This document shows, piece after piece, positions 41,391 through 62,314 of a DNA stretch of 64,000 nt; position 1 is the stretch's first letter; each line of letters opens with the position of its first letter. This DNA is from Nitrospiraceae bacterium (lineage in GTDB: Bacteria > Nitrospirota > Nitrospiria > Nitrospirales > UBA8639), in NCBI GenBank assembly GCA_020632635.1, contig JACKFE010000002.1:495625-559624 (forward strand). Reading direction: 5' to 3'. The notes under the pieces are model-generated. The model saw only the letters and a list, made by a program, of their open reading frames with translations. It was not told where the DNA came from and searched no databases. The translations under genes and the position numbers were made by a program.

Positions 41391-41756
41391 AAGGTTTTTC
41401 ACCGACCAATGTGTTATTCCCTACCTTCCGTTTTTCGTTCCAGGATTTTTTCTCTCCCCTTATGAACACAAGGCGCCCCCGGCCCAGAAGATAATTTTTC
41501 TTATCTGACCTCCCCAGGCTGCAGAAAATCTCTTTCCCCTTCAATTTCTTCTGATAAGCATCGAAAAAAAATGAAATCGTACATTGCAATACCGGGTCCT
41601 TTCCATGTCCACTTCGCCTCAAGTACGCTCCCCCAATCCAAGAAATTCCATATAACAAAGATACGCCGACAATGAACCCTACCCCCTTGATAAACGACTC
41701 ACATGAAATAGGCTCATGGTCCAACGATGACTATTTTTTTTAGGGAGAACCGAACA

Positions 41757-43073: not shown

Positions 43074-43309
43074 GGTCGCAGACCAAACAAGCATGCATGC
43101 AATCGTTATTCATGCATGGAAGTACGTCATATGATCTGATCAGGCAAAGAAATGAAGATCTGTACTCTCTGCCTCATTTTTACCCCTAGGTTGTTGCTTT
43201 TCACCTGAGGGTCTCAGGACGCCGACCTCATCCTTCAACAATAACTAAAAGAGGTGACGAGAGACACGTTGGGGAATCGTGGAGTGAGCGGGCAAGGAAC
43301 ACGCCAGCA

Positions 43310-43662
43310 ATGACGGCAAAGCATATGTCCATTGATGAATATGACCAATTGCTGCTTCAATCCGGAAACGCTTCAATACTCCTCCTCAATAATAGTGCCA
43401 TGCCTATCAATGGAAAAATTCTTTCCCTGGTTCAGGATCAGCCTCAATTGTATGGTCCATGGCACTTGCGGAGTATCATCACAATCCCGCACAAAATGAT
43501 TGGCACATGAGCATGAGCTGGATCGAACAAGATCAAGCCAGTAATCTGCGAGGAAGCTCCTGGATGTGTGGGCTTTCGTTCAATACATTCTTCTCGTTAA
43601 TTATTTCTCCCAAAACACTCTTCTCTCCCTTTTCATCTCAGTACCGTACGAATTTATTCTAA
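43310..43662 (+). pseudogene. Frameshifted remnant resembling the C-terminal domain of gene 41757..43073
   Basis: Two overlapping short ORFs. LAEYHHNPAQNDWHMSMSWIEQD compares with LGVYRHNPVQNAWHEGSITQEG of the upstream gene. Confidence 0.35.
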
Positions 43663-43965
43663 GTCGGTTCAGACTGACACGGAGTACGGCTTTTCCATCT
43701 GTCTCTTTCTGCGTGAACGCTTGGAATAAATACCTACCTCATTCTTCGTAAATATTGAATCTTGTGCCGAAAAATCTCCTCAAACTGTGGAAATTGACTT
43801 CACACTCGTGACTTGGCCTCTTTACACTAACCGTTAGCAACCCCCACACAATTTCATCCAATAAATGGGCTTGAACCTCCCAAGACCTTCAAGCGACTGA
43901 CTTGAAAAATATGGAAACCCAATGATTCCCCATTCAATCCTGTTCACCCTTGAAAGGAATGACAT

Positions 43966-44535
43966 ATGCGGATACTCATTTTCACGTTCATCGTCAGCTT
44001 GTGGCTTCACGGATCCCTTGCGCATGCGGCTGATCCACAAAACACCAAACAGGTTCTCGAGTTACAACGACAAGTGTCGATCCTCCAACAGGAAGTCACA
44101 CGCCTAACAAGGATCATAGATGCGTCGCCAGACGGCACCATACGCATCACCGCGCCCCAGCACAAACAGGAAACGACAGGAGGCAATGTCCAAACCTCCA
44201 TCAGTGGACAACAGGTCTTGCACATCGGGCAGGCTGTTTCTGAACGGATCGGCACCACACAATCCATTGCAATCGGAACCACCCAGTCTGTCTCTGTCGA
44301 ACAAGATGCGCAGCACACCGCAGGACGCAATGCCATTCACCAAGCGGGTGGCGATCTCACATTGATGGCCGGGAAACGTACGATCATCACGGCGGGCGAT
44401 CAATTGATCCTAAAAACGGGACAAGCCTCGATCATACTGAATAAAAACGGAGATATTCTCCTGCAAGGCAAGGACATCCAAATCAAGGGGTCTGGCCAGG
44501 TCAACATGAAAGGATCAAAGGTCACCACACAATAA
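43966..44535 (+). CDS. Secreted coiled-coil protein with a VgrG/gp5-needle-like beta-helical C-terminus
   Basis: Signal peptide MRILIFTFIVSLWLHGSLAHA. Heptads VLELQRQVSILQQEVTRLTRII. C-terminus: GDLTLMAGKRTIITAGDQLILKTGQASIILNKNGDILLQGKDIQIKGSGQVNMKGSKV. Confidence 0.65.
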   Translation: MRILIFTFIVSLWLHGSLAHAADPQNTKQVLELQRQVSILQQEVTRLTRIIDASPDGTIRITAPQHKQETTGGNVQTSISGQQVLHIGQAVSERIGTTQSIAIGTTQSVSVEQDAQHTAGRNAIHQAGGDLTLMAGKRTIITAGDQLILKTGQASIILNKNGDILLQGKDIQIKGSGQVNMKGSKVTTQ

Positions 44536-44704
44536 GGAGGCTATGGCAGTGAGAGATCGCTCTTGAGAAATGGGGCGACTGCAAACAATGCCATTCTGAC
44601 ACTTATCGCTCAAAACGATTCACGATGGCATGTCGCTGTGTATCGGGGAAGGCAGTGGCTTGTTGATTCTCATGTTCCCCTAGTACAGAAAGGAGTTGGT
44701 ACCC

Positions 44705-45373
44705 ATGAAACACTCATGTCCAACCACCCTCACCCTTCTAAAGAATCTGGGTCTCTCGGCCCTTGTATTCACCTTTGTCGTGGGCTGCTCAACCACACAG
44801 ACGCCCCCATCCGAAATCGCCTCGGTGGAAGAAATCCAGGAGGTCGAAGCGGGCAATGACCCAGCCATGGAGGGAACGGATGCGGGAGCCCCTCAAGACT
44901 GCGTGGACAATGATGAACGACCGGCCTGTCACGTAAAATCCAGAGGACTCGGATTTGTTCCCATTAAGGTGAAAAGTGAAACCACCCAACGATGTCTGCG
45001 CCCGAACGGCGGAAGCACTGCCGAAAATGTCGAAATTATCATGTCGACTTGTTCAGAGACGAAAAGCCGCCGGTGGTACCGGGAGCAAGGGGTGTATGCA
45101 GGCGGGGACAAGATCATCAACTTGAACTCCGGAAAATGTATCGAACGAGTCGGGACCGTCCTGCGACAACGGACTTGCGCCAACTCATCTAACCCCACCA
45201 GTGCCCACAACCAAACTTGGGTCTTTCAAGGAACTCCTCCCTTCGGAAGCGGAGACTTTTTGAAGTCCTGGACATCGGAAGGCGGATGCGCCCGAGCCAT
45301 GAATGCAACGAACGTCCGAATGTCGACGTGCCAAAACGATGCAAACCGACGCTGGTATCAATCGGCCTTTTAA
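44705..45373 (+). CDS. Lipoprotein with a ricin-type beta-trefoil lectin domain
   Basis: ATG at 44705 follows AAAGGAG. Lipobox ALVFTFVVGCS. Three QxW-like motifs (RRWYRE, QTWVFQ, RRWYQS) with paired Cys. Confidence 0.75.
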   Translation: MKHSCPTTLTLLKNLGLSALVFTFVVGCSTTQTPPSEIASVEEIQEVEAGNDPAMEGTDAGAPQDCVDNDERPACHVKSRGLGFVPIKVKSETTQRCLRPNGGSTAENVEIIMSTCSETKSRRWYREQGVYAGGDKIINLNSGKCIERVGTVLRQRTCANSSNPTSAHNQTWVFQGTPPFGSGDFLKSWTSEGGCARAMNATNVRMSTCQNDANRRWYQSAF

Positions 45374-45475
45374 GAGAACCAAATACCTGTCAACCACTTA
45401 GGCAGGAAGGAGGCATTCTCCTTCCTGCCCAGGCAAAACGTGACGTTGGACCTTACGACAAGAGGAGTTTCTCTC

Positions 45476-46012
45476 ATGAGACCATTCCAAATCCCCCTCA
45501 TCGCATTGTTGTTTGCGCTACAATTATCTGTCGCCTTGGCAGCGGATCCCAGCTTTCGGCAGGCCCAGCCGCATCAGATGGCTCCCCAACGGGGCAGCAC
45601 GATTCCTCAATTGCAACTGACACCAGACTATCTCTACCAACAAATCACGGCTCTCCAACAGCAGGTCGTCACCCTTCAAGGTCAAGTAAATCTCCTGCGG
45701 TCCGTGGTTCAGGTTTCTCAAACGGAAACGACGATCCAAGCTGAAAATCTCAGCCTAAAAGCCACGAAGGCTCTAGCCCTGAACTCAGGAAAGGACACCA
45801 CTCTCACCGTTGAGAATGAATTCACACTCACTAGCGCCAAAGACTTGCTGATCAAAAGTGGGAAAACTGCCAACGTGGAAGGTGGCGCCCTTTTGAACCT
45901 CAAAGCCCCACAGGTCAAACTGAATAATGGCAGCAAACCAATGGCCACCGTCGGAAGTATTGTGTCCGGAGGAAAAGTTATCTCAGGGAGTCCAACCATT
46001 TTCGGCCCCTAA
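45476..46012 (+). CDS. Secreted coiled-coil protein with a spike/needle-like C-terminus (paralog of 29386 and 43966)
   Basis: ATG at 45476 follows AGAGGAG. Signal peptide MRPFQIPLIALLFALQLSVALAA. Heptads ITALQQQVVTLQGQVNLLRSVV. C-terminus: LLNLKAPQVKLNNGSKPMATVGSIVSGGKVISGSPTIFGP. Confidence 0.65.
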   Translation: MRPFQIPLIALLFALQLSVALAADPSFRQAQPHQMAPQRGSTIPQLQLTPDYLYQQITALQQQVVTLQGQVNLLRSVVQVSQTETTIQAENLSLKATKALALNSGKDTTLTVENEFTLTSAKDLLIKSGKTANVEGGALLNLKAPQVKLNNGSKPMATVGSIVSGGKVISGSPTIFGP

Positions 46013-48218: not shown

Positions 48219-50288
48219 ATGAAATTCAAAAAACATACGATCGTATTATCCATGGCCGTGGCGATTCTCGCCTCCTCTATAATAAGCATTGCCCCGGCCC
48301 TAGCCGGTACGATCATTACCTTGGAGCAACCCGTCCACTTTCTGAATGCGGAGGGCAGCGACATCATCCTCGAAGCCGGACAGTATGAACTGGCCTCAGC
48401 CGATGCATGGCTACGCGTAACCCCGAGCGACGGACAAGCCGTCGATGCGCTTCTTTTGGAAGCCGTGACCGCACCACATGAGGAAGCGGTCACGGAACCA
48501 TCGGCCCTTTCGGTCCAAGGAGAACAGGCGGATCGCCATCATTTAGTCTTGTTGTTGCCGGACGGCAAACAACTGGAAGCCGTCGGCACGTATTCCGGCA
48601 TCCGTCCACGAGGAGGGTTACGGACTCTTTCTCCCGCCCGCCGAACGCTCGCACTGAACCAGGCCTCATCTTCCACAAGCCCGAAAGTTTCGTCGAGTAC
48701 GCCGACCATAAACCAAGGACAACTGAGCATCCAACCGGGGCCGAGACTGGGAGGCGGCATCAATGTTCCTCAGCCTCCTCTCCAGACAACCGGGAAACCC
48801 GTGCCGAATCCCCCGATTCTCGTTAGTCCGACAGAAAATTTCGAAATTACCGGTTCCGCCTCCCCACAAAAATATTTCACCTGGCATCCCCCAACGTCAG
48901 GTCCAGGCATCTCGTCCTATCGATTTAAAATGGAGGAGGCCGATAATCCCTCAGGCTATGTCTTGGGTCCGACGCCGGTTCCGGCGACATCGGGGACCAC
49001 CATTGCCACATCCCAAATCATTTCGTATCAGTATCGGGGCAAGCGGATACGATGGAGCGTTCAAGCCTGCACCTCGGATGGCCAATGCAGTGCTCCGGCT
49101 TCCCGGATTCTGGTGTGGTCCACAGGACTTCGCCCCCCGCAATTACGTTTTCCTGAATCCGGAGCCACGGTCACCACCTTACAACCCCGCCTTGAATGGT
49201 CGGAGGTTCGCGAGGCGACGTATTATTTGGTGTGCGTCTCTAAGCCGGGAGTCCAATGCCCATCACGCGAGACCGCGCCTGGCAGCAATCCCCATTCCGT
49301 CGTCATCAAAAGGATTGGTCCGTCGAACACGGTGGCTGCGCCGGACCTCACCCAGTTTTTCGGAGAACAGATGAATTGGACAGTGTCCGCCTGCACCACC
49401 GATGGGAACTGCGCCATCCAACCTCAAGTCCGGCCTATCACGATCGCTCAAGCGCCAACCCTACGCAACGGTGGCATCACGTTACGTCCTAGCCGGGCAT
49501 TCGAATGGGTCTCCAACTCCAACGCACCGCAATTCAAACTGTGTGTCTTTACGCAGGGAACCGCCTGTGCGGCTTCCGGAAATCTATTGGAACAAGACGT
49601 AAGCCGGAACAATGGTAAGTTACAGACCGATATTCCCATCCTGAATCAGCTACGATCAATGGCGGGAAAGGGGGTACGGTGGCAAGTCGCGGCCTGTACC
49701 CCCAGGAAATGTCTTTGGTCCACCCCCGCGACCGTATACATCCCGGAATCCGTGTGGCGGGTCATATTCAGCGTCCGGTATATCGACCTCTTTCATGATT
49801 GTGATGAGGCCAGCCCAGGCGACTTAAAGTTTTCATTCCGGGCAAGCATCAGTCCAGAGAATGGCTACTACGAACGCACGTCCGTGAGTAATTTCGACTT
49901 CGGCAATTATAACAATTTCGAATCGGGAACCCAGATTTACGTTGGAAGGCCATTCGCCACCCTTCCCGAGGCCATCCCAGGCGATGAGATCTCGGTGTGG
50001 GGCGTAGCCTATGATTGCGATCGAGCATCCTGTGGTGAAGAAGTGGTCGAGCTACTGACCACCGGGAGCGACGACAAACTTGGAGACATCCCACGTAGGA
50101 ACTGGAAAAGTCATCGGACCGACTCAGCGAGTCCGCTGGGCTGGCTGGAGAGCGATAACTTGCTCGAAATCCAAAGCCGCAACACCAGTTGCTATGCCCT
50201 GATCCAAGGATTACGAGGAACCGATCAAGGACGCTTTGACCATACGTTTTCCGTCTTCTACGAAGTGCAAAAGACAAAAATCTGGTAG
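48219..50288 (+). CDS. Secreted protein with the shared N-terminal module, three Cys-containing ~90-aa repeats and an unknown C-terminal domain
   Basis: Signal peptide (…IISIAPALAG). The module ends LLLPDGKQLEAVGTYSGIRPRG. Repeats carry RWSVQACTSDGQC, NWTVSACTTDGNC and RWQVAACTPRKC. Confidence 0.8.
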   Translation: MKFKKHTIVLSMAVAILASSIISIAPALAGTIITLEQPVHFLNAEGSDIILEAGQYELASADAWLRVTPSDGQAVDALLLEAVTAPHEEAVTEPSALSVQGEQADRHHLVLLLPDGKQLEAVGTYSGIRPRGGLRTLSPARRTLALNQASSSTSPKVSSSTPTINQGQLSIQPGPRLGGGINVPQPPLQTTGKPVPNPPILVSPTENFEITGSASPQKYFTWHPPTSGPGISSYRFKMEEADNPSGYVLGPTPVPATSGTTIATSQIISYQYRGKRIRWSVQACTSDGQCSAPASRILVWSTGLRPPQLRFPESGATVTTLQPRLEWSEVREATYYLVCVSKPGVQCPSRETAPGSNPHSVVIKRIGPSNTVAAPDLTQFFGEQMNWTVSACTTDGNCAIQPQVRPITIAQAPTLRNGGITLRPSRAFEWVSNSNAPQFKLCVFTQGTACAASGNLLEQDVSRNNGKLQTDIPILNQLRSMAGKGVRWQVAACTPRKCLWSTPATVYIPESVWRVIFSVRYIDLFHDCDEASPGDLKFSFRASISPENGYYERTSVSNFDFGNYNNFESGTQIYVGRPFATLPEAIPGDEISVWGVAYDCDRASCGEEVVELLTTGSDDKLGDIPRRNWKSHRTDSASPLGWLESDNLLEIQSRNTSCYALIQGLRGTDQGRFDHTFSVFYEVQKTKIW

Positions 50289-50341
50289 AGCCATGTGGAA
50301 AATCGGGAATGCATAATCACCCACAAGGGGGACTTGGGACA

Positions 50342-52495
50342 ATGAACATACTGTTAATTCTTCTATTCATGGGCCTGCTCACTAGCGTAAGTGTAGCGGA
50401 ACAAGTTCCCATACAAGACCCTGTTGTCGTTCAATTTACTCAGCCCGTATTCTTTGTGAGTCCCGACGGAACACCCTATCTCGTCATGCCCGATACTTAT
50501 ACGGTGGAGCCGGCGCATCCCTGGCTGCGACTCATTCCAGCAGAACGGAAAGACGCCATTCTCATTGAAGCGGCCACAATCAACCATGAGGAATCTCTAC
50601 AAACTCAGACAGCGGTGATCATCGAATCTGAAACGGGGAAGATACATCTCTTGCTGCTGTTCCCTGATGGAAAAGCGCTGGAGGCGAGAGGATCTTCCAG
50701 CGGAATTCAATCGCGAGCAATCTTGCGGGCAACGCTGTCACAAAGACAAATTCAGCAGGCTTTGACGGCAAAACGTCCCTCCAGCCCTAAGCTCTCTTTT
50801 TCCCCCGTTCCCTCAACATCCAAGCCCACGGTCACGCCCCAACTTCCGGGCAATCCTCAAGTCCAGGTTCAGGGAAGCCCGCCGGTTCCCGTACTGGATC
50901 AACCGGCACCGAATGCTTCTCTCGCCAATCCCGCGTTGTCATTTCGATGGCATCCGCCCTCCACGAATCCTGCCCAAACCCGGTACGAATTATGTGTGGC
51001 TGAAGCTGGCACGGTGTGCGGAGCCGCTCAGACGTCTATCGTATTCAAGACAGTGGAAGCTGCAGCGCAGGCGGGAACCGCTCAATATGAATTGGGAATC
51101 GAACCGCCTGCTGGGTCAGCCCAAAACACAACCGGCACCCCGATCACCATCAACCGGTATGATGTCACACTACCGATTCGGTTCCAGGGAAAACGTCTCC
51201 ACTGGTTAATCAGAGCCTGTGCTCCCAATCCGAATAAACTCGTTCTAGGAGGGGGAATAGCGGAAAGCTGTTCACAGTCGAGCCAAAGAACACTTCAATG
51301 GCCACTGCCCCCACCCAAACTTGAGGAACCAGGGATGAACAGTGTCCTGGAGACACTTCGTCCGACATTCCATTGGGGATATGATGCCCTCCAAGGAGTT
51401 GACTATTTTTTATTGTGTCTCTCCAAACCAGGCATCGCATGCCCTAAACAAGCCACGACAACGGACACTACCCTAGTGGTTCAAGTGCCTGTCAATATAA
51501 GCCAATCGCCAAGATCATACAGCCCATCGAGCGACTGGACATTCTTGAGAAACGGACCCTTTCATTGGACCGTCGCAGCCTGTAACCGCACGTTTGGCTG
51601 TCTCTACCAACAGGCTGTGCGCCAAATCTCCCTGGCAAAGCCAGCCGCTCCCATCCTGATCAGCCCGGCTCCAACCGTCGCACTGGGGCTCACGAATTAT
51701 TATTCCAACGGTAATCCACGATCGGAACATCCTGTATCATTCGCGTGGCAATCCGTTCCCAAGGCCAGTCTGTATAGCATTTGTCTCGCACCAATGGGCC
51801 AACCCTGTGGTCCACCTCCCGGTCCCGCGCCTGAGAGTTCGGGAATGATGTTCCGCTCCGGGACAACTCCAGGCACCAATCTCACCCTCCAACTTCCCAA
51901 CGATTTGTGGTGGGATCACGAACAAGGGACTCGATTCCAATGGACCGTATCGGCCTGTAACAGCGTTGGAGTCTGCACGGCCTCCTCACCCCGCCCGGTT
52001 CAATTCAAAGTTTCGATCCATAGCTTTGCCAATCTCTATCCCACGTTTCAATCCAGCCAGTGCACGAATTGTCACGGCATGGCCAATCACAATGCCAAAT
52101 ATCAGCAACATGTCAGTGCAGGCCGATTTCCAGCCGGAACCAATCCCACGACCGGAACGATTTGCGCCAATTGTCACACGGCGGAACGGGGCTTTGCCGA
52201 CGGGTGGAGAGCCCCCTCGGCAAGCTTGGACTTCACCGGCAAAACGTTCGGTGAGACCTGTTCCATGATTCGACACGGAGCCACTTACACACAAAAGGGG
52301 ATGAAACAGCATCTTCTGACAGACGAGCTGGTAACCTGGGCGGTCAGGCATTTACCGGGGAATCCGGTTGTCAATCTCGCATTGTGGGTCCAACGAGTTA
52401 CCAATTGGCTCTCCAAGGCCAATGATTACGAATACCCGTCGGGACGTCCGGAACCGTACACGGTGCGCTGCGGTTCACTGCCAATCGGGGAATAA
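50342..52495 (+). CDS. Secreted protein with the shared N-terminal module, Cys-containing repeats and a C-terminal domain with two CxxCH heme-binding motifs
   Basis: ATG at 50342 (alternative 50309). Signal peptide MNILLILLFMGLLTSVSVAEQ. The module ends LLLFPDGKALEARGSSSGIQSRA. Repeats: HWLIRACAPN, HWTVAACNRTFGC, QWTVSACNSVGVC. Heme motifs: CTNCHG and CANCHT. Confidence 0.8.
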   Translation: MNILLILLFMGLLTSVSVAEQVPIQDPVVVQFTQPVFFVSPDGTPYLVMPDTYTVEPAHPWLRLIPAERKDAILIEAATINHEESLQTQTAVIIESETGKIHLLLLFPDGKALEARGSSSGIQSRAILRATLSQRQIQQALTAKRPSSPKLSFSPVPSTSKPTVTPQLPGNPQVQVQGSPPVPVLDQPAPNASLANPALSFRWHPPSTNPAQTRYELCVAEAGTVCGAAQTSIVFKTVEAAAQAGTAQYELGIEPPAGSAQNTTGTPITINRYDVTLPIRFQGKRLHWLIRACAPNPNKLVLGGGIAESCSQSSQRTLQWPLPPPKLEEPGMNSVLETLRPTFHWGYDALQGVDYFLLCLSKPGIACPKQATTTDTTLVVQVPVNISQSPRSYSPSSDWTFLRNGPFHWTVAACNRTFGCLYQQAVRQISLAKPAAPILISPAPTVALGLTNYYSNGNPRSEHPVSFAWQSVPKASLYSICLAPMGQPCGPPPGPAPESSGMMFRSGTTPGTNLTLQLPNDLWWDHEQGTRFQWTVSACNSVGVCTASSPRPVQFKVSIHSFANLYPTFQSSQCTNCHGMANHNAKYQQHVSAGRFPAGTNPTTGTICANCHTAERGFADGWRAPSASLDFTGKTFGETCSMIRHGATYTQKGMKQHLLTDELVTWAVRHLPGNPVVNLALWVQRVTNWLSKANDYEYPSGRPEPYTVRCGSLPIGE

Positions 52496-52574
52496 ACAGA
52501 CAGAGAATCAGAGGAGAAAACCCAGGTACGACAACAAAAATCTCAATACACCTTGATTTAGGGAGGGCGAAATC

Positions 52575-53543
52575 ATGCAAATTCCCAAATGTAAAATTCT
52601 GTTAATGATAGCCGGAACATTAATGGGTTGGTGGCTGGCAGGCCTCGCCCCAGCCTTGGCCGACACCACCGTGACCTTGGAGCAACCCATTCACTTTTTG
52701 AATGCCGAAGGCAGTGACATCGTCCTCGATGCCGGACAGTATGAACTCGCGTCAACCGATACCTGGCTGCGCGTGACTCCGAGCGAAGGGCAAGCGGTCG
52801 ATGCGCTGCTCTTGGAAGCCCAAGCAGCCACCCATGATGAGTCGCTCACCGAACCACTGGCGGTTTCCGCGCAAGGCGAATCGCCAGATGTGCACCACCT
52901 GGCCCTGTTGCTGCCGGGCGGGAAACGATTGGAGGCCATTGGAACCTACAGCGGCCTCCGATCAAGAGGCACGTTTTCGTTGCTAACGATTCAGCGATTA
53001 AGAACCTTGAGTTCAACCTCACAAAGCACGACACCGACTGAATATTCTACTCCCCTATTTGGTGGGTCGGGAGGCACCCGGAGCTATAACCTGGATTGCG
53101 GTACCCAATCCGTCCTTGTGGGAGTGGTTTACAAGTCTGGGATGTGGCTTGATGCCATTGGGAGTATTTGTCAGCAAATCAATCCCCAAACCGGCGCCTT
53201 AGGAAATGAGTTTACCAGAGGGCCAGTTGGGGGAAGTGGGGGAATTGCCAAGATAGCCCGATGTAACAACGGCCAGGTTGTTCAGGGGTTCAAGGCCCGT
53301 TCGGGCCAGTTCGTCCATGGTGGGAGCCTACTCTGCAGTCCATGGGACCAGGCAGCCAAGGCACCCCAATACTCGGAATGTTTCGCCGGCTGCCCTTTAG
53401 GGAGGTTCAAAAGCTTCGGAGCCGGTGGTACTCAATCTGACATATTTTTCTGCCCAAGCGGAAAGGCCGGGAAGGCTTTTCGCGGAAAATATGGGTGGTA
53501 TATCGACAGCCTCCGCTTTGTGTGTGATTTATGGGATAAATAA
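52575..53543 (+). CDS. Secreted protein with the shared N-terminal module and a jacalin-like lectin domain
   Basis: Signal peptide (…WWLAGLAPALADT). The module ends LLLPGGKRLEAIGTYSGLRSRG. GGSGGTRSYNLDCGTQSVLVGVVYKSGMWLDAIGSIC is similar to the N-terminal domain of gene 20556..22376. Confidence 0.8.
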   Translation: MQIPKCKILLMIAGTLMGWWLAGLAPALADTTVTLEQPIHFLNAEGSDIVLDAGQYELASTDTWLRVTPSEGQAVDALLLEAQAATHDESLTEPLAVSAQGESPDVHHLALLLPGGKRLEAIGTYSGLRSRGTFSLLTIQRLRTLSSTSQSTTPTEYSTPLFGGSGGTRSYNLDCGTQSVLVGVVYKSGMWLDAIGSICQQINPQTGALGNEFTRGPVGGSGGIAKIARCNNGQVVQGFKARSGQFVHGGSLLCSPWDQAAKAPQYSECFAGCPLGRFKSFGAGGTQSDIFFCPSGKAGKAFRGKYGWYIDSLRFVCDLWDK

Positions 53544-53592
53544 CATGGGGCGCGGCAACATCAGAAGCCAATTTCGATAGGGCCGGGGTCGA

Positions 53593-53616
53593 GGCGGACA
53601 GGGCACTCTGTCCGCC
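53593..53616 (+). terminator. GC-rich hairpin downstream of gene 52575..53543
   Basis: ggcggacag-ggcact-ctgtccgcc forms a 9-bp stem. The downstream T-run is weak. Confidence 0.4.
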
Positions 53617-53684
53617 CCGCCCGCTCTTTCCTAGGCCACCACAAAATACAGCATCTATTGCAACAAGCATAAAGGAGACCGTTC

Positions 53685-54314
53685 ATGAGAATGCCTTTTA
53701 CATTAGCCATTGGGATCTTGTGCCTGAGCATGGGAAGCCCCGGCTCAACAGGAGCTGCCCCCAATCCCGATCTAGAAGCGCTGGCTCAAGGTTCTGTGGT
53801 GCAGTTCAGCGGGACGGAGCGGATCTCCCAGCCGTTTGTGTTCGACTTGGATATCACCGCCCCTCACCCTGCCCTCGATTTTGACAATATCGTCGGGCGG
53901 CCCTTTCAGATTGCCGTAGCTCGAGGCCGGGCGGTGGCCGGGATGGTAGAACGGGTAGAACAGAGGGGAGTGTCCGGTCGACAAGGCCAGTATCGCATCC
54001 GCCTCGTGCCGGCCCCCAATTGCCCGGTCGTCTTGGGAAGCATGTGGAACGGAAAAGACCTGTCTCCCACTCAGCAGCCACCGAATAAATTCCTGTCACT
54101 GTTCCAAAGCCGTTCGACAACCGGTACGTTAAATGAAATTCTCTTCGACGCCACGCAGGACAAGGAACGGTTGATCATGCGGTCCGGCAATCAGTATCTC
54201 TCCCTGAGCCCGCAAGGCATCACCGCCTCCACAGCTATCACCGTTCCCACAACGACAGTTCCCAAGCTTCAATCTTCGCCTCGATTGAATTTTCAGAACA
54301 GGCCAAATAGGTAA
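53685..54314 (+). CDS. Signal-peptide-bearing miniature VgrG-like protein (N-terminal gp27-like start fused to a gp5 OB-end/needle-start segment)
   Basis: Signal peptide MRMPFTLAIGILCLSMGSPGSTGAAP. VQFSGTERISQPFVFDLDITAP...IVGRPFQIAV...GQYRIRLVPAP matches the VgrG N-terminus pattern. It is followed directly by PVVLGSMWNGKDLSP...LNEILFDATQDKERLIM, matching the PxVxGSLWNG...NExxFDDxxGxE block. Confidence 0.6.
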   Translation: MRMPFTLAIGILCLSMGSPGSTGAAPNPDLEALAQGSVVQFSGTERISQPFVFDLDITAPHPALDFDNIVGRPFQIAVARGRAVAGMVERVEQRGVSGRQGQYRIRLVPAPNCPVVLGSMWNGKDLSPTQQPPNKFLSLFQSRSTTGTLNEILFDATQDKERLIMRSGNQYLSLSPQGITASTAITVPTTTVPKLQSSPRLNFQNRPNR

Positions 54315-54409
54315 ACCAAATGCGTCAGGCTCCCTCCCCCTCTAATATAACGCTCCCCATACCTGCCATTATGAGAAGGGAGACGTAGTCTTTAAAGGAG
54401 GTTAATGCC

Positions 54410-57400
54410 ATGAGACGATTTCTTATCATCTCCATGTGGTTCCTCATCGGTAGTTTGATGGCTATAGATTCTCATCTCGAAGCCGGGAGTGACCTTCATC
54501 TTCCGCAGGTGACGCTAAACCAGTCGACCTCATTTCTCGGCTCGGATGGGGACACTATCGAAGTGCCATCTGGAACGTACACAGTGGAACAGGCTGATAA
54601 CTGGATTCGACTCCAACAAGACGAGCGTCGTGATGCCATCATCCTGCAGGCGAGCCCCCTAACACATATAGAGCCTGTCACCCATTCACAAGCCATACTG
54701 AAACAACACGGATTCAACGAATTTCAGCTCATGCTACTACTCCCAGATGGAACCGGCCTCACTGTCACGGGACAGAGCCAGTTAACATCACGAGGGATTT
54801 CGGCGCTGGCCCGTTCACCGACTTCTCCAAAAAGCGCTGGGGGAAAAAGTACCCTTCCTCAGGGCCTTGGATCGGCATCAGCCGGCATTCCCCAAGTGAC
54901 CCAAGCTCGGCCAACCGTGGACGTTCCCACATCCACCGCCTCGCCACTCTTTGAAGCGACTTACTTGCCCTCGTTTAAAGGGACGCGCATGCTGGAAGGT
55001 CGCGTCTCACGCCTCCCCGTCAGCGCCTTTCACCAGCAAATCATTACTAGTACGACCGGGCTCGAACTGCGGACCCGATGCCTGGGTGAGAACGACACGG
55101 GTATGATCGTCGACATGTCCTCCAATCCCATGACCGATACCTTGGAGCCGATCCCCAGAGGACTGTCGCACACCCTACCTCCGACGAGACTGACCACTCT
55201 CTACAATGACGATCATCCCTCGGCAGAAGGGAACCATCTGGGAAGTTATATTTGTGCAACCTGCCAATCTCCTGCGCCACCTACCTCGATTCGAGCCACA
55301 GTGTACGTTTTCAGCCAACGTCGGGCTACGGCCTATTGTACGTTGGAAAAGAAAGAACCCACCGGCTGGCAACCGCTGACCAACCCTCCGTTTCAACATT
55401 TTGGCGGGACCCTGGTGGATGTCGGCCCGCTCCAACCACATGACTACCTGGAAGTTCAAACCCAAGACTTCACCGGATGGCCGGACTATCAAGCCAAGGA
55501 TTATGATACCCGCATGCTTCTCTTCCAACCGACCAGTCCGGCAAACGGATTACTCTATAACGAAAATGCCCGTTCGGATCGTGATCCCAAAATCGTCATT
55601 CCCAATAGCGCCTGGAGCCATGGATCCAATTACGTGTTACTTGGAAAATCTCAGCCACACACTCAATCTAACAAAGGGGTCGAGGTGAACATTGACCTCG
55701 TACGTGGACCGTTGAACCATGGCCAATCTTCTCATACATTTGGCACCTCCCATCTTCTCTCACCAGGTCGGTACTATGTGTGGCTGTATGCGAAAACCAC
55801 TTCGCCGGTCGGGACTCCAACCCCGAAGCCCCATTCGTCCGCCGACATGAACAGGGCTCTTGAGAATGGATTTACCTGCCCACCGATCATTACCCCCAAG
55901 TCGTCCACAAAAAATCCTCAGTTGAGGGGAACGCTCAACTCCAGGGCATTCGACTTTCGGATTATCGCCAAGCAAAACGGCGCTTGGACAGAACGAAAAC
56001 GCCGGACAATCCTGAAAGGCCAAATGGGTGCGAAGGCGGGAGATCTGAATCTTTTCCTCATGGACCTCGATGTGCCCATTCCCACCGAGATCGCCGTTGA
56101 AGTTCAACATCCAACTCAAGATGTGGAATTTTTCCCACAATGGCGGGTTATGCGGAATCCGGATGCCAGTGATTTCACGGTGGCATCTTTTAATACCCTC
56201 TACGACTCCGGTTCACCTCATGCAAGGAAAACCCGTAATGCGGCCAACCTCCTAGCTTCCCGTGGCATGATTCAACCTGGCACCGGGGCCATTCTTGAGC
56301 CCACTGACCAGGCACCCTGGCAATGGGATGCTGATCTCATTGGTCTGCAAGAACTCAGAGACGGAGATGACGATGGATTTGCGGAATACTTTTACGCGGA
56401 TGTTTTTGCCCGAGAAGCGATGCAGATGGGCTCTCGATCCTGGAATGTCATTCGAGGGCAGGACGAAGACTTCCCGAATGCGGTGGCCACCGATGGGCGG
56501 GGTCCGGTGTTTATCACCGAGCACCTTTGGAGGAGTGGGAATGCCAACAACATTTTCCTTCCGAATTCACTTCTGAAGAAAGCCCGTTGCAAGACCTATG
56601 ACCGAACCAATGAATATGAATGTGCCTTGGAGGATGGAGCCAGCGATTTTGTCAAGACGTTTGGCATCCCGGGTCAAATCAGTATCCCACGTTATCGGTC
56701 AGTGACCGCATCCGGACAGCAAGAAGCTGATCGGCCGATCATGGTAGTCAATCTTCATTTGGCTGACGGATCCTCCGGTTGGTTGAAGAGACGCAACCAA
56801 CTCAATAATCTCATGACCAAACTCCGCACCTTTCTCAAGGAAAACCCCTCGGCCTTTAACAGTGAGGGGAAAAACCACCCACACCATTACCAAAATCGAA
56901 TCCTCTTACTCGGCGATTTCAATTGGTCTGCGCATCATTGCGGCGAGCACTATTGGTTCTTGCACACCCTTCGGGAAGCGTTCGGCTATGCGGTGGACGT
57001 ATCGATGGCTGCCAATGACAATGACATGCATGATCGCATGGGCGCCATCGGCTCCAATGGTATTCCACAGAACTGGGAAAGTGCCAAAAGTTGGAAAAAG
57101 GACCCGTCCCGCCATACCAAGTTTCCCTGGTGGATGACTACCCACCGAGGGAAAGCAGGGAACCTGTATGACCGGAATGAACGGTACGATGCCATGATGT
57201 TAGTCGGAGCCGGATGGGCCTATGACGATCCGGTCCGAGAGTATGAAGTTCTGTGGGATCGAAACGGCAATAATCCATTGAATGGTGACTCAAAGGGTGG
57301 TGTGGAAATGGCCGACACGGGGAACCTCGTCACCCAAAATGGGTACCGCCCTCAATATGCGTTGAAATGCCGAAAACCAAGTTGCGAGGAGGAAGATCGG

Positions 57401-57484
57401 ACGAACTCAACGAAACCAGGCGACCCGGCCTTAGATTCTGATCATTTACCCATTCGAGCACGACTTCGGGTTTTTATCCGATAA
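54410..57484 (+). CDS. Secreted protein with the shared N-terminal module, a large middle region and a C-terminal endonuclease/exonuclease/phosphatase (EEP) domain
   Basis: Signal peptide (…LMAIDSHLEAG). The module ends LLLPDGTGLTVTGQSQLTSRG. EEP motifs: FTVASFNTL, LIGLQEL, VVNLHL, LLGDFNW, LDSDHLPIRARL. Confidence 0.8.
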   Translation: MRRFLIISMWFLIGSLMAIDSHLEAGSDLHLPQVTLNQSTSFLGSDGDTIEVPSGTYTVEQADNWIRLQQDERRDAIILQASPLTHIEPVTHSQAILKQHGFNEFQLMLLLPDGTGLTVTGQSQLTSRGISALARSPTSPKSAGGKSTLPQGLGSASAGIPQVTQARPTVDVPTSTASPLFEATYLPSFKGTRMLEGRVSRLPVSAFHQQIITSTTGLELRTRCLGENDTGMIVDMSSNPMTDTLEPIPRGLSHTLPPTRLTTLYNDDHPSAEGNHLGSYICATCQSPAPPTSIRATVYVFSQRRATAYCTLEKKEPTGWQPLTNPPFQHFGGTLVDVGPLQPHDYLEVQTQDFTGWPDYQAKDYDTRMLLFQPTSPANGLLYNENARSDRDPKIVIPNSAWSHGSNYVLLGKSQPHTQSNKGVEVNIDLVRGPLNHGQSSHTFGTSHLLSPGRYYVWLYAKTTSPVGTPTPKPHSSADMNRALENGFTCPPIITPKSSTKNPQLRGTLNSRAFDFRIIAKQNGAWTERKRRTILKGQMGAKAGDLNLFLMDLDVPIPTEIAVEVQHPTQDVEFFPQWRVMRNPDASDFTVASFNTLYDSGSPHARKTRNAANLLASRGMIQPGTGAILEPTDQAPWQWDADLIGLQELRDGDDDGFAEYFYADVFAREAMQMGSRSWNVIRGQDEDFPNAVATDGRGPVFITEHLWRSGNANNIFLPNSLLKKARCKTYDRTNEYECALEDGASDFVKTFGIPGQISIPRYRSVTASGQQEADRPIMVVNLHLADGSSGWLKRRNQLNNLMTKLRTFLKENPSAFNSEGKNHPHHYQNRILLLGDFNWSAHHCGEHYWFLHTLREAFGYAVDVSMAANDNDMHDRMGAIGSNGIPQNWESAKSWKKDPSRHTKFPWWMTTHRGKAGNLYDRNERYDAMMLVGAGWAYDDPVREYEVLWDRNGNNPLNGDSKGGVEMADTGNLVTQNGYRPQYALKCRKPSCEEEDRTNSTKPGDPALDSDHLPIRARLRVFIR

Positions 57485-57692
57485 GGTCGCGATACCTTGC
57501 AGCTTGCTCATGGCGGAACTCAGATCAGAGGTGAGCGATGAAGTGGATCTGACGTTCACACACAGCGCCCCTCGTCATCGGAGATCCAAAACCAGAGTCC
57601 CACGTGACGAAAGCTGCAACCGTCGCCTGGGTTGAAAACTCCGGTTCTCCCGGCTAGGCCTTAATCTCGATCACGACAGGTTAGGAGGGAAT

Positions 57693-59861
57693 ATGCGAGC
57701 ATATTGGACAGTTATTCTTTTGAGCTTGATGATCCATGCAAGCATGGGCACGGTCTATTCAGCATCCGCTCCACCGAAAATTTCTGTGGAAACGCCTATA
57801 TACTTCTCTGCCGCCGACGGGAGTGAAATGCTTCTCACACCTCACGTCTATTCGGTGCAAAGTCGAGATCCATTCCTAGAAATGCGACCCGTCGGGGCAG
57901 ACAGAAAAGAGACGATATTACTCAACGCGACCATCGGCACCCACCAGGAGTCTGTTGGGTCAACTACTGCCTTCCTCACAACAGGAGATGAAGAGAATTC
58001 GTATCATCTTGTTCTGTTGAAGCCGGAGGGAACCGCTTACGAGGCTATCGGCACGACGACAAGTCTCCGCTCCAGGGGAACCACGACACGCCTCACCCCA
58101 ATCCGTGTACAGTCTCTCCTGCAAAATCTGAAGAGCCAGACTGTACCGCTCAACAGACCGCCCCTTTTCCCCATCCCGACTATCCCGCCATCAGAGGTAC
58201 AGACCACGAACCCGTGCGTTCGGGATGTTCGCGAGGATTTCCTCAAAATACGGACGCATGGCGATAAACTCGGGTTCCGTCATACTCAATCACCCGGAGC
58301 CTATACTGGAAGTGGCAGTTCTCATTATCAGGGCATTCAACGATTGGGCAATTATCTGGCCATATCCGGCAGTGCAGCCCATGCCGGTGAAATTATGGTC
58401 GTCGAAATGCAGTCCAGAGCAAAGACCGGCCGGTTTCGTTCCAATCGGCTCTCCTCAAATACGCCCCCCAACAATGACCGGGTTATCAAAGTCATTGAAG
58501 CCAGTCGCACCCTGACTCACGCTGGTGGATTTCAGATCATGGGAGAGGTGCTGGCCGTCGGGGTAGAAGGAAGCAATCAATCCGAAGTGGTGTTCTATAA
58601 CATCAAAGATCCGACCAATCCACAAGAGCTGTACCGGATTTCGCGTTCGGGAACCATCGGAGGGTTTAGCGAGAAACCCAGTGCCGGAGCAACAGCCCTG
58701 GTACAACGCCCGGATGGTCGCTTTCTCCTACTAGTCGGACGGTCGGATTCCAACGTTCTGGATTTCTACCTCTCCCGAAATGCCAATATCCTGACCAACA
58801 CATTTGTCCACGTCGATTCCTGGCACGAGCATGAACTGCAAGGCATGGATCGGGAATTTGGAAACTATCAGAACATCAACTTCGTCCGGCAATGTGACGG
58901 CCAGGTCTTTGTTGTTGGACTTCATAAAAACGTGAACCTAGGAGGCATCCTCAGCGGAGGAGAGGATTGGGCCGATTTGTTTAAACTGGAACTGCTTCAA
59001 ATCGGACAAATCGGAAATCCCGGTATCCTCCGTCATCATACGGTCGTTACGAAAATCGCGAACCGGCATCTGTACTGCCATGACATCTGCGACTTCGATG
59101 CAGGCGCTGGCGTGTATGTCGATTCACAGGGAGAATTGTTCATCTATGGAGTGGAACATTGGCGGCACAAGGGCATTGTCCGGTTCAATGAATTCAGGCC
59201 GGTTCCCTCATCCGTCTCACCTCCCCTGCTCGACCTCAATCAGACCTGGATCGAACTCTATGACGACCGTGCCTTTGGCGATCGCAGTATCATGATCGAT
59301 TTCCGTGACCATTCATTGAGAAATTTTTCTGACTATGATCAAGTTGAAGGATTCGAGGACAAAACCTCCTCCGCCAAGTGGGTCATTCCCTCGGGTTGGC
59401 AATACTTGCTGTTTGAGGACAAATCATTCAAGGGACGCTTGCTCAGACTGTCCGGGACCGGCGGTCTAGGAGCCATTTCCGACTTCAGCCCCAGAGATTG
59501 GAACGATACAGTCTCATCCTCAAAATTTTCTCCCGTCACGATCACACAACTCGGCCAAGCCTGGGTCGAACTTTTCGATGATCATACGTTTAAAGACCGG
59601 CGTCTGAGGATAAACGGAGGTTCGGCTGGAATTTCTAATTACCAAAATATCACTGTGGAAGGACAACGAGGATTTGGGGACAACGTCTCTTCAGCCCGAT
59701 ACATGATCCCCAATGGTTTGGTTTACCGCTTATATGAACATGACTCTTATCGGGGAAAAACCTTGGATTTGGTAGGCACCGGACGAATCGAGGAAATTCC
59801 TGATTTCACTACCCGAAGCTTCAATGACCAAGTCTCTTCGTCCAGATTTATCACACCATAG
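57693..59861 (+). CDS. Secreted protein with the shared N-terminal module, a middle domain related to the C-terminus of gene 2535..4727, and two beta-gamma-crystallin domains
   Basis: Signal peptide (…MIHASMGTVYSA). The module ends LLKPEGTAYEAIGTTTSLRSRG. Four Greek-key motifs: LYDDRAFGDR, LFEDKSFKGR, LFDDHTFKDR, LYEHDSYRGK, each followed by VSSxK/R[FY]. Confidence 0.8.
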   Translation: MRAYWTVILLSLMIHASMGTVYSASAPPKISVETPIYFSAADGSEMLLTPHVYSVQSRDPFLEMRPVGADRKETILLNATIGTHQESVGSTTAFLTTGDEENSYHLVLLKPEGTAYEAIGTTTSLRSRGTTTRLTPIRVQSLLQNLKSQTVPLNRPPLFPIPTIPPSEVQTTNPCVRDVREDFLKIRTHGDKLGFRHTQSPGAYTGSGSSHYQGIQRLGNYLAISGSAAHAGEIMVVEMQSRAKTGRFRSNRLSSNTPPNNDRVIKVIEASRTLTHAGGFQIMGEVLAVGVEGSNQSEVVFYNIKDPTNPQELYRISRSGTIGGFSEKPSAGATALVQRPDGRFLLLVGRSDSNVLDFYLSRNANILTNTFVHVDSWHEHELQGMDREFGNYQNINFVRQCDGQVFVVGLHKNVNLGGILSGGEDWADLFKLELLQIGQIGNPGILRHHTVVTKIANRHLYCHDICDFDAGAGVYVDSQGELFIYGVEHWRHKGIVRFNEFRPVPSSVSPPLLDLNQTWIELYDDRAFGDRSIMIDFRDHSLRNFSDYDQVEGFEDKTSSAKWVIPSGWQYLLFEDKSFKGRLLRLSGTGGLGAISDFSPRDWNDTVSSSKFSPVTITQLGQAWVELFDDHTFKDRRLRINGGSAGISNYQNITVEGQRGFGDNVSSARYMIPNGLVYRLYEHDSYRGKTLDLVGTGRIEEIPDFTTRSFNDQVSSSRFITP

Positions 59862-60450
59862 GAACCCTCTAGACTTGAGCACCTACTCCATCTCGATACG
59901 CCGCCGTATCTCTTTCGATACGACCGACCGTCGATATTCCTGAAATTGTATACGCCTTCGCCTCCAGTGTACTCATTTTCCCTGTCATCATCCATAGATA
60001 CCTAAAACCAACCAAGCCATGAATCCACTGGGCTCAGATGGCATAAGGGTTGCGTAACCCATTGAACAAGAACACGCGCTGGGATGACAACGATGACAAA
60101 GAAAGAGAATCATCCACCAGATTTCCTTGATGCCGATCTCCCTACCATAGGAGCACGGTCGATCTCTTATCGGAGTGTCAAAATCAGAAGGGACCGTTCG
60201 CTCTACCCCATTGAAAGCATAGATAAAACGATGGTTATGAGAAAAACGGCTGTCCGTCTCTTGGAATCACCTGAGGGGGAACTCTCCGACTGGACGAATC
60301 ACTTTCTATCCTGTGATTCAAGGATCTTGTGCAGGCCGAATATCCCCATGATGCATATACGTTCGCTGTCTCACAAAAGACATTTTTTGTCCCAAATGTG
60401 CCAATTTCATGACATGGTCTGAATAGCCGCTTGACGAGGAGGGAAGCCCC

Positions 60451-61222: not shown

Positions 61223-62314
61223 TCACCCAAACTCGGGGACGACCTTTTCGCAATACATTTCAACCTGCACATACCCCGGCTTGTCAGGAAGTCGCACCAC
61301 ACTCACGATACCAAGATGCTCAAGGTGGAGCGTAAAAACCACTGTATTGTTTTGAGTGGGGGATAACCATCGCAGGGTTCCCTTTTTTTCAAACCTGTCC
61401 GCATTCAACCCCTTAATGACAAAATTGGCATGCCAATCATAAAAGGGCTGGGCCTGAGTTTCGGGAAGCACTACCTTTACATTTGAATAATCTTGAGGCT
61501 TCGTTCCCGGAAAGCCGGAAACCGTCGGATTTGGAGGAAGGAGGCCTGCGGAAAATATTGGGGTCTCGACTCGGGCGACTTGTTGAATGCCCCCCCAACC
61601 ATCAATAGAAAAATGAAAATAGCCTTTCAACGGGGTACTAGACATAGAAGGCTTGACGAATTGAGAGGCCGCATAGCTTCCAGAAACACGTTGAGTTTGC
61701 ATGACACCGATAGTCACACGAAGGGACGCTGAGTGCCCAGGTAAAGCAATATCGGCATCTGGGAACGATAACTCCCGCAAAAAGCCCCCAGAAAATTGGA
61801 GCTCATTTCCTTGTTCTGCAAAGCGATCCTTCATGAAGATTGAACCGGTAATCGCCTGAGTGGCTCCTTGAAGGCTGTTGACCAGCCAGTTATTAAATGA
61901 CTGGCCTGGAACAGGAAGGTAATAGAACACCAGATCACGGTATGTGAATCCCTGAATGTGTTTGAAAATCCGACCCTCCATCCCCTGCTGGCCGGAAGAG
62001 GATCGTCCCGCTGCTTCACCTCCCTCAAATCTGAATATCTCCAGAGGGCTCCCACCAAAAGACAATCCAAAGATTTGTGGATATCCCATCAATGGATCGG
62101 GAACAATTTCCCTTGGCGGCGACTGCCGGGACGGCTGAGATATGTCGGCATTGACTTCAGGAATCGACAAGGCTGCTAAGGCTGCCCCAGCCCCTTGGAA
62201 AACCCCAAGGGGAAGGCCAACCGCGGCTAACCCACCCATACTAGCCAGCCAGAGAAATCCCCTCCGTGAGAGAGCCCCATCCGAATCCCGTGGTCCTGGT
62301 TCCGCTGAATTCAT
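61223..62314 (-). CDS. Tat-exported protein with two tandem tail-tube-like domains (paralog of 41757..43073)
   Basis: Twin-arginine motif LSRRGFLWLASMGGLAAVG. Its second domain aligns with that of the paralog: VVLPETQAQPFYDWHANFVIKG...GTLRWLSP...VVFTLHLEHLGIVSV...VQVEMYCEKV versus VTLPRTQAGPFTEWFKQFVING...GSLEFLAP...VLFKLNFEHLGIFRM...VKVEMYCETL. Confidence 0.55.
   Translation of the reverse strand: MNSAEPGPRDSDGALSRRGFLWLASMGGLAAVGLPLGVFQGAGAALAALSIPEVNADISQPSRQSPPREIVPDPLMGYPQIFGLSFGGSPLEIFRFEGGEAAGRSSSGQQGMEGRIFKHIQGFTYRDLVFYYLPVPGQSFNNWLVNSLQGATQAITGSIFMKDRFAEQGNELQFSGGFLRELSFPDADIALPGHSASLRVTIGVMQTQRVSGSYAASQFVKPSMSSTPLKGYFHFSIDGWGGIQQVARVETPIFSAGLLPPNPTVSGFPGTKPQDYSNVKVVLPETQAQPFYDWHANFVIKGLNADRFEKKGTLRWLSPTQNNTVVFTLHLEHLGIVSVVRLPDKPGYVQVEMYCEKVVPEFG

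Follow-up and report, generated by a model that had tools for sequence, protein, structure and literature searches.

A short VgrG-like gene in a Nitrospira population as an in-frame deletion allele, and probable relic, of a VgrG-like family with a predicted Sec signal

Canonical VgrGs are assembled in the cytoplasm. Here, we ask what kind of gene encodes a 209-aa VgrG-like protein that opens with a Sec-like leader and passes abruptly from the beginning of VgrG to a block near its end: a miniature spike protein re-targeted to the Sec pathway, as the first-pass annotation of this DNA had proposed, or what is left of a longer gene. The ORF lies in a 64,000-nt stretch of DNA (the window, by which the whole stretch is meant) and exists as that annotation had described it. 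Its parts are as follows, all on the forward strand.

53672..53677, +: Shine-Dalgarno-like AAGGAG, 7 nt 5' of the ATG, as read from the sequence
53685..54314, +: mini VgrG-like ORF of 209 aa with an ATG start, an in-frame deletion allele of a VgrG-like gene whose product is predicted to be exported
53685..53756, +: putative Sec-type signal peptide, aa 1-24 (n-region MRMP, h-region FTLAIGILCLSM, c-region GSPGSTGA, candidate cleavage TGA/AP)
53763..54020, +: N-block, aa 27-112, corresponding to the first helix and five-strand sheet of the gp27-like hub
54012..54026, +: deletion junction GCC CCC AAT TGC CCG (A110-P111-N112-C113-P114), placed by alignment to a full-length ortholog; junction peptide of the product, ...LVPAPNCPVVLGSMWNGK
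54021..54272, +: C-block, aa 113-196, corresponding to the last gp5-type OB-fold strand (PVVLGSMWN) and a short beta-strand stub
54309..54314, +: stop-codon region with a TA insertion/deletion polymorphism that gives 209-aa and 220-aa forms

Profile comparisons resolved the protein into two VgrG segments. The Pfam profile Phage_GPD aligned with aa 44-110 over its positions 1-71 of 305 (E=1.7e-10; 41 bits against a cutoff of 30.1), and the NCBIfam VgrG profile TIGR03361 aligned with aa 38-110 over positions 14-90 of 513 (E=5.6e-18), while TIGR01646 took up the remainder, matching aa 111-169 with positions 420-479 of 480 (E=3.5e-11). The same two segments were recovered against VgrG1 of P. aeruginosa (PDB 4mtk), in which aa 40-111 correspond to residues 22-97 and aa 110-166 to residues 439-499. 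The passage from the N-terminal VgrG pattern to a late block, from about 14-90 to about 420-480 in VgrG numbering, is as the first-pass annotation had read it, and these alignments indicate a genuine jump of ~340 VgrG residues, far above chance. The profile or structural match to the VgrG/gpD families that it had set as a test was obtained from both Phage_GPD and TIGR03361, and Foldseek likewise returned partial VgrG matches. Its description of the gene as a VgrG with the gp27 body deleted holds in that most of this body is gone; by the profile matches, nearly all of the OB-fold was deleted as well.

At NCBI, a protein identical to the window protein (MCB9710921.1, among others) is named 'contractile injection system protein, VgrG/Pvc8 family'. 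The gp27-like hub is incomplete, being covered by the first 71 of the 305 Phage_GPD positions only. The gp5-type OB-fold domain (PF04717), which is present in the orthologs, gave no match in the window protein, where only the last strand, PVVLGSMWN, is left. No beta-helix needle was found at the C-terminus, where an AlphaFold2 (AF2) model places about five short strands after the OB remnant; in needle-fused relatives such as P0022, in which the needle is fused after the same block, this stub runs on into the beta-helix. The scores also fall below the curated cutoffs for TIGR03361 (64.8 vs 186.35 bits) and TIGR01646 (42.8 vs 121.8 bits). In hub, OB-fold, needle, score cutoffs, absence of a leader and genomic context, the window protein thus departs from what defines a VgrG/Pvc8 spike, and it should not be catalogued among the functional VgrGs.

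The AF2 model of the window protein consists of two locally confident pieces (pLDDT >95 in the N-block; pTM 0.50) that meet at a disordered junction (pLDDT <50 at residues 113-118). Foldseek superposed the N-block on PDB 2p5z over 75 columns with an rmsd of 1.7 Å; all matches to VgrG structures were partial. The leader appears in the AF2 models as a low-confidence helix only.

Full-length relatives of the window protein are numerous. Early homology searches returned partial relatives, one with the same leader followed by a gp27-like body (P0003) and two with a full OB-fold before the same C-terminal block (P0005 and P0006). With a single reconstructed ortholog of 538 aa as the query, a scan of species-representative genomes and JGI metagenomes identified intact ORFs of ~533-541 aa with an equivalent leader in six further Nitrospirales/Nitrospirota lineages (L005-L009, L011-13). 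The L011-13 genes were considered as a second 'mini' form, from a match to query residues 1-192 over 657 nt, and are in fact intact and full-length. A profile search at E<=1e-30 yielded 126 clusters, ~40 of them at ~535-540 aa and ~50, in which a DUF2345 needle is fused, at ~630-700 aa. All members with a name derive from Nitrospirota MAGs and bear the annotation of a T6SS VgrG ('T6SS tip protein VgrG'), a public label that is probably misleading for this family.

Among the intact relatives found, P0170 (539 aa) is the closest, with identities of 82% and 80% to the window protein in the two retained blocks. The proposition that all close relatives are broken was ruled out by P0170 and P0172, both intact. 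Intactness extends to the predicted fold. The L005 ortholog matches Phage_GPD over positions 1-302 of 305 (E=8.5e-64) and contains the OB domain, and the AF2 model of P0170 (pLDDT 81, pTM 0.73) shows the same N-block secondary-structure elements as the window protein and aligns with VgrG1 (4mtk) at E=9e-48 and TMq 0.75, as well as with PVC and AFP spikes (9qgm, 6j0m and 6rbk). By sequence and model, the intact family is thus predicted to have a genuine VgrG fold preceded by a signal peptide. Its signature comprises a leader of ~24 aa, 'N-P-D-L-x-A-L', an F-x-G-T-E-x-I-S-x-P-F block at an offset of ~40 and, towards the C-terminus, PVV(L/I)GSxWNGKD...GITAS. The window protein carries all of these blocks, leader included, and on this alignment evidence it is a damaged member of a Nitrospirota clade of VgrG-like proteins that are predicted to be exported. 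In the literature, we could not find a description of a signal-bearing VgrG, of Tat-exported tube proteins or of any VgrG in Nitrospira; the family is delineated here.

The leader itself was assigned by a heuristic together with conservation across orthologs rather than by a trained predictor. In the window protein, the n-region has a charge of +1, the hydrophobic core FTLAIGILCL spans 10 residues (10-12) with a Kyte-Doolittle mean of 2.64, and the c-region is made of small residues and offers a candidate cleavage site after residue 24. Most of the orthologs examined share this n/h/c pattern and the position of the candidate site. Across the family, a hydrophobic leader that sets the first conserved motif at an offset of ~40 is found in 65 of the 75 members that include this motif, whereas the canonical VgrGs from an exhaustive HMMER search (n=70) show a median motif offset of 26 and no hydrophobic leader. 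The Sec-like N-terminus noted in the first-pass annotation is supported in this way and is best described as a predicted Sec-type (SPase I) signal peptide; the remark that an export signal on a VgrG is unexpected is likewise borne out by the 70 leaderless VgrGs. Re-targeting, in contrast, is contradicted. Full-length orthologs in at least six Nitrospirales lineages already carry the leader, which by this distribution is ancestral and older than the deletion; the shortening came later, in one lineage.

A different view of the leader is that this hydrophobic N-terminus is an uncleaved membrane anchor, or irrelevant, and that the family acts on the cytoplasmic side like ordinary VgrG. The heuristic nature of the assignment and the low-confidence helix of the AF2 models are compatible with an anchor, and Pro, which at +1 blocks signal peptidase I, often follows the AA pair. 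However, most of the orthologs examined offer a candidate site one residue earlier (xxA/A, after residue 24), and the n/h/c pattern is kept across the family while the leader sequence diverges. Moreover, all partners encoded in the surrounding cluster bear export signals, including a textbook Tat motif on a tube-like protein, and no cytoplasmic T6SS or eCIS machinery is encoded nearby (see below). We consider an uncleaved or irrelevant N-terminus improbable, and the leader is treated here as a predicted signal peptide.

The extent of the loss was defined by alignment. Compared with the 538-aa ortholog reconstructed from a syntenic contig (L001), the window protein lacks exactly 326 residues, that is, 326 codons or 978 nt of a ~538-residue protein, and the same 326-residue gap is seen against the intact P0170. 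At both endpoints, intact relatives carry a codon-aligned direct repeat (x-Asn-Arg). In L001, the 5' copy reads GCC CTC AAT CGT C and the 3' copy GAC CCC AAT CGT C, giving CC[T/C]CAATCGTC with 10/11 nt in common; in L033, the copies read GCC CTC AAT CGC and GAC CCC AAT CGT, with CAATCG in common. Slippage or microhomology between these short repeats, of which this pattern is the signature, probably produced the 978-bp deletion, which removed codons ~111-436 (equivalently ~113-438). Since both repeat copies lie in one codon phase, such a deletion would be in-frame without selection, and because this outcome is automatic, the preserved frame is not evidence of selection. On its 5' side the break comes directly behind strand five of the first hub sheet, and on its 3' side it directly precedes the last OB-fold strand, at the OB/needle boundary; with breakpoints at such structural boundaries, the remnant could fold. 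What is left comprises the leader, the first helix and five-strand hub sheet, one orphan OB-fold strand and a short beta-strand stub; having lost the greater part of the hub and almost the whole OB-fold, it could not form a canonical VgrG spike. Within the 64-kb window, the deleted segment was not found at any other place.

That the deletion is an artefact of assembly or gene calling has a negligible probability. Nothing in favor of such an artefact was found, and the same junction recurs across many samples that were assembled independently and with different assemblers (MEGAHIT contigs, scaffolds and NCBI MAGs), the longest contig measuring 714,656 nt. The allele is represented by 30 protein variants (>=90% identity; 208, 209 or 220 aa) on more than 100 contigs from many samples, NCBI MAGs among them, and is fixed in one Nitrospira population. 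The variants differ by G17R, S42G, P193H, S198L and N208K and by the TA indel at the stop codon, which is the only length change; no stop or frameshift was found across the 30 variants.

This persistence raises the possibility that the window protein is a functional, minimised derivative, in which the retained first hub sheet and the C-terminal stub would, after export, act on the needle, tube or N-domain proteins encoded around it, as an adaptor, a cap or a decoy. The ORF is intact on all those contigs behind a good Shine-Dalgarno sequence, its breakpoints match secondary-structure and domain boundaries, both pieces are modeled with high local confidence, and the tube and needle genes of the window are still intact. 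The local confidence, however, may be inherited from an alignment of full-length homologs, and the codon-aligned repeat accounts for the preserved frame. Furthermore, all polymorphisms are protein-altering, one of them in the most conserved motif (S42G, within FSGTE) and one at the stop codon, and among the relatives retrieved no second lineage shares the breakpoints. One candidate for a conserved mini form, P0021 (51% identity), was rejected, as its breakpoints differ and its leader is frameshifted at its own locus.

Measures of selection were of limited use in deciding the matter. Four sites segregate in the mini gene among 11 strains, and all 4 are nonsynonymous (0 synonymous); four larger neighboring genes pooled have 28 synonymous and 24 nonsynonymous sites (pN/pS ~0.27). 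The contrast (one-sided hypergeometric p ~0.06, on strains chosen by mini-protein variant and hence a biased sample) is only suggestive of relaxed constraint, and the adjoining 322-aa gene is also skewed, with 1 synonymous and 4 nonsynonymous sites. Over the long term, dN/dS in the retained blocks (0.10-0.21) is no different from the ~0.16 obtained as a baseline for pairs of intact genes; as a test of function it could not discriminate, and it means only that the lesion is recent. A promoter and terminator scan around the gene gave nothing above shuffled expectation.

Among the relatives of the gene, different and independent lesions (nonsense, frameshifts and other deletions) were found in at least eight other lineages. 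A nonsense codon (LAY to LA*) interrupts the gene in L031, and L002 and L032 share a frameshift at about codon 280, to which L002 adds a TAG. An out-of-frame deletion via the microhomology CGTCGCCC was seen in three samples (L014-16), whereas L030 (P0021) combines a different in-frame deletion (~residues 86-400) with its frameshifted leader. In L003, a 5' truncation left the C-block alone beside an unrelated gene; P0279, P0274 and P0268 are three pieces of one split gene on a single contig; and P0237 lacks the leader and has a C-terminal frameshift. L001 carries a one-base frameshift in a T run that may be an assembly error (3.9x coverage). The C-terminal module was retained in three independent truncations (the window, L003 and L014-16), as a function for the short form might lead one to expect, and all three have their 3' breakpoint no more than a few codons away from the N-R-P-V-V site. 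Against a function, two of the three other deleted or truncated alleles are frame-disrupted (out of frame in L014-16, in the leader in L030), which points to a mutational hotspot rather than selection.

The locus is also mosaic and variable when DNA identities are compared. L033 is 94-96% identical to the window in the flanks but only 77-82% in the VgrG blocks, and it carries a full-length VgrG directly between these flanks, without the five N-domain genes that surround the mini gene in the window. L032, in turn, shares 77% with the window in the N-block and 93% in the C-block.

Taken together, the ORF is a population-fixed, in-frame deletion allele of a Nitrospirota-specific VgrG-like spike gene whose product natively has a predicted Sec signal, and we consider it probable that it persists as a relic, one of many decay products in a recombining accessory island. 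Its product would have no function or a residual one, although it may still be made and exported, and its deletion would be one of many independent decay events in this hypervariable island. The lack of any stop or frameshift in the 30 variants, the good ribosome-binding site and the intact tail-like genes nearby count against a relic; even so, a functional minimised protein seems to us unlikely. The first-pass annotation had named a decaying pseudogene with variable truncations and stops as the finding that would speak against its proposal: variable stops, frameshifts and deletions do occur in related lineages, while the window allele itself has none of the stops or frameshifts.

As an isolated gene, the mini-VgrG is an ordinary in-frame deletion remnant, and the family with predicted export signals and the cluster around it are the more notable result. 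The cluster members in the window are listed below.

40206..41390: N-domain/DUF928 protein, a cluster member
41727..43073, +: tail-tube-like protein (gp19/Pvc1/Afp1 fold, by profile matches) with a predicted Tat signal (SRREFL motif)
43966..44535, +: needle A, with signal peptide, coiled coil and gp5/VgrG beta-helix (DUF2345, Gp5_trimer_C; best ortholog E=7.8e-17)
45440..46012, +: needle B, with signal peptide, coiled coil, beta-helix and a distinct C-terminal tip, by alignment
52575..53543, +: secreted N-domain protein directly upstream of the mini gene; it adjoins the VgrG gene in L001, L005, L008 and L030
54410..57484, +: secreted N-domain protein directly downstream of the mini gene, with a weak EEP-like C-terminus
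61223..62314, -: paralog of the Tat-signal tube-like protein (SRRGFL), by motif and homology

The needle missing from the mini protein is thus encoded separately in the window, by needles A and B; the DUF2345 profile matches six of the seven members of these two needle families. The tube-like protein keeps the S/T-R-R-x-F-L motif in all orthologs and scores 17.0 against TIGR01409 (TAT_signal_seq; cutoff 16.7), and its profile matches Pvc1 (6j0b) with E=1.5e-3 over residues 17-147 of 149, the best Pfam gp19 match among the members of its family reaching E=7e-23. The N-domain, of ~110 aa, occurs in 12 copies in 11 ORFs within the window, in arrays of proteins predicted to be secreted, and has no detectable homolog in PDB, Pfam or NCBIfam. 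By tblastn synteny, the cluster is conserved across Nitrospirales (L001, L004, L005, L008 and L009), and the mini gene shares this family synteny of N-domain proteins, Tat tube-like protein and needles A and B; N-domain neighbors were also seen in L029 and L030. In the distant member P0022, a needle-A-type module is fused to the VgrG C-terminus and the next gene starts with an N-domain. Apart from the mini gene, the tail-like genes of the window cluster look intact.

When the 39 ORFs of at least 150 aa in the 64-kb window were scanned with Pfam, together with the regions flanking L001, L005, L008 and L009, no sheath, baseplate or AAA+ ATPase gene was detected; of the sheath, baseplate, Hcp/tube and ATPase genes that accompany such spikes, only one for a tube-like protein was found. 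Genes for TssB/C, Hcp, TssK or ClpV were also not found near the mini gene. In addition, every VgrG partner in the cluster bears a predicted export signal, Sec or Tat. These features suggest that the intact cluster proteins would act together after export, in a sheath-less tail-tip-like complex linked to the N-domain proteins. We can therefore propose, tentatively and as something possible rather than probable, a hitherto undescribed Nitrospirota module of which all parts are exported (a Sec hub, Sec gp5-type needles with coiled coils and a Tat-dependent Pvc1/Afp1-type tube), and which would be assembled in the periplasm or outside the cell to present or deliver the polymorphic N-domain proteins. 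Within such a module, the mini-VgrG would be either a broken copy or a naturally minimised hub. To our knowledge, all contractile-tail-derived systems (T6SS, eCIS, tailocins and phage tails) are assembled in the cytoplasm, and if assembly here really follows export, this module would be an exception to that rule. If so, Nitrospira, a key nitrifier, would possess a new envelope or extracellular apparatus tied to a large polymorphic secreted family.

Comparison with known systems places the family close to VgrG in fold and apart from it in context. With the T6SS spike VgrG/TssI (P. aeruginosa VgrG1, PDB 4MTK; E. coli c3393, PDB 2P5Z), the family has the sequence blocks and the fold in common. 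Unlike these proteins, the window protein lacks most of the hub, nearly all of the OB-fold and the needle, and the Nitrospirota family carries a Sec-type leader that canonical VgrGs do not have. The eCIS spike Pvc8/Afp8 shares the same hub and OB fold with the intact relative, and the neighboring tube-like protein matches Pvc1/Afp1. However, eCIS assembly takes place in the cytoplasm and involves a sheath, a baseplate and an AAA+ ATPase, none of which was found here, and the components here bear Sec or Tat signals.

Among very short members of the VgrG family, the Francisella VgrG (~165 aa; NF041249, T6SS_TssI_Fran) is the only natural 'mini VgrG' known to us. It consists of the needle only, is functional and cytoplasmic, and forms part of a T6SS. 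The window protein, a recent deletion product, keeps the opposite parts, namely an N-terminal hub fragment and a stub; it is needle A of the window cluster that weakly resembles NF041249 (E=0.0014). The cell-puncturing device gp27-gp5 of phage T4 divides hub and needle between two polypeptides, and so do the ~538-aa Nitrospirales forms, which lack a needle and are accompanied by needles A and B. In T4, both proteins are devoid of export signals and become part of a baseplate, whereas in Nitrospirales the hub protein retains the OB-fold, and each needle comes with a coiled coil and a predicted leader of its own.

Three independent truncations, those of the window's 209-aa mini gene (53685..54314, + strand) and of the related loci L014-16 and L003, each had a 3′ breakpoint no more than a few codons from the N-R-P-V-V site, which is the boundary between the OB-fold and the stub:

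Window, 54018..54030, 3′ breakpoint
L014, ~1370-1400, 3′ breakpoint
L003, ~310-320, 3′ breakpoint

This recurrence could reflect a mutational hotspot, the sequence being CGTC-rich, or, alternatively, it could reflect retention of the C-terminal module.

The island around the VgrG gene is hypervariable and recombining. Compared with L033, a close haplotype whose flanks are 94-96% identical, the window carries five additional genes encoding the ~110-aa N-domain (48224..53586 and 54315..59904), and in another lineage, L032, the mosaic lies inside the VgrG gene itself. The additional genes are:

Upstream of the VgrG gene, 689, 728 and 322 aa
Downstream of the VgrG gene, 1024 and 722 aa

Across 11 strains, the 322-aa gene adjoining the mini gene (52575..53543, + strand) displayed one synonymous and four nonsynonymous segregating sites; the remaining neighbours displayed pN/pS values of 0.16-0.35. 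The spacer between this gene and the mini gene contains a 9-bp perfect hairpin, GGCGGACAG-ggcact-CTGTCCGCC (~53593..53616), which lacks a downstream T run and did not register as a terminator in the scan.

Phage-tail-like components with export signals were identified on both sides of the mini gene, with a ricin-lectin lipoprotein-like gene lying among them:

41727..43073, + strand, tube-like protein with twin-arginine signal SRREFL and Pvc1/Afp1/gp19 tail-tube domain
43966..44535, + strand, needle A, ~190 aa, with signal peptide, coiled coil and gp5/VgrG beta-helix
44696..45373, ricin-lectin lipoprotein-like gene
45440..46012, + strand, needle B, ~190 aa, with the same three elements as needle A
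61223..62314, - strand, tube-like paralog with twin-arginine signal SRRGFL and Pvc1/Afp1/gp19 tail-tube domain

Both twin-arginine signals are of textbook form, and the putative Tat export of a tail-tube protein is unexpected; both paralogs also possess a second, uncharacterised domain. Compared with its counterparts in L005, L008 and L009, the tube-like protein at 41727..43073 has an additional C-terminal extension of ~90 aa. The gene order also differs, with needle A, tube-like protein and needle B in these loci of other species, and tube-like protein, needle A, ricin-lectin gene and needle B in the window (41727..46012). Needle B ends in ...VGSIVSGGKVISGSPTIFGP, which may bear a vague likeness to a PAAR-type motif.

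Downstream of intact clusters, a caspase-like (Peptidase_C14) protein was repeatedly found:

L001, 9748..13298, caspase-like region
L008, 13151..16853, caspase-like region
L005, 20744..21604, caspase-like region

In L001 and L008 it is accompanied by Sel1 repeats (on an adjacent gene in L001) and adjoins an autotransporter beta-domain protein; the scanned window ORFs showed none of the three features. Separately, the exhaustive search returned a signal-bearing family member of 780 aa (P0027) with a ~110-residue internal tandem duplication in its gp27-like body, where the stretch ETDFTFISRLMEQEGIHYHFEP... is present twice.

The N-domain occurs in 12 copies within 11 large window proteins, each copy preceded by a signal peptide:

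N-domain starts, 11699, 12041, 15483, 22535, 28025, 40281, 46152, 48294, 50426, 52650, 54485, 57774

Its consensus is ..HF...DG..I....G.Y.V......WLRL.P......A.L.EA....H.E....P.A........H.L.LLLP.G..LEA.GTYSG.RSRG, and searches of PDB, Pfam and NCBIfam returned no homologs. C-terminally the 11 proteins are unrelated (DUF928, cytochrome-c-like, EEP-like, beta/gamma-crystallin-like and jacalin-like), and the overall pattern resembles that of a polymorphic secreted-effector family.
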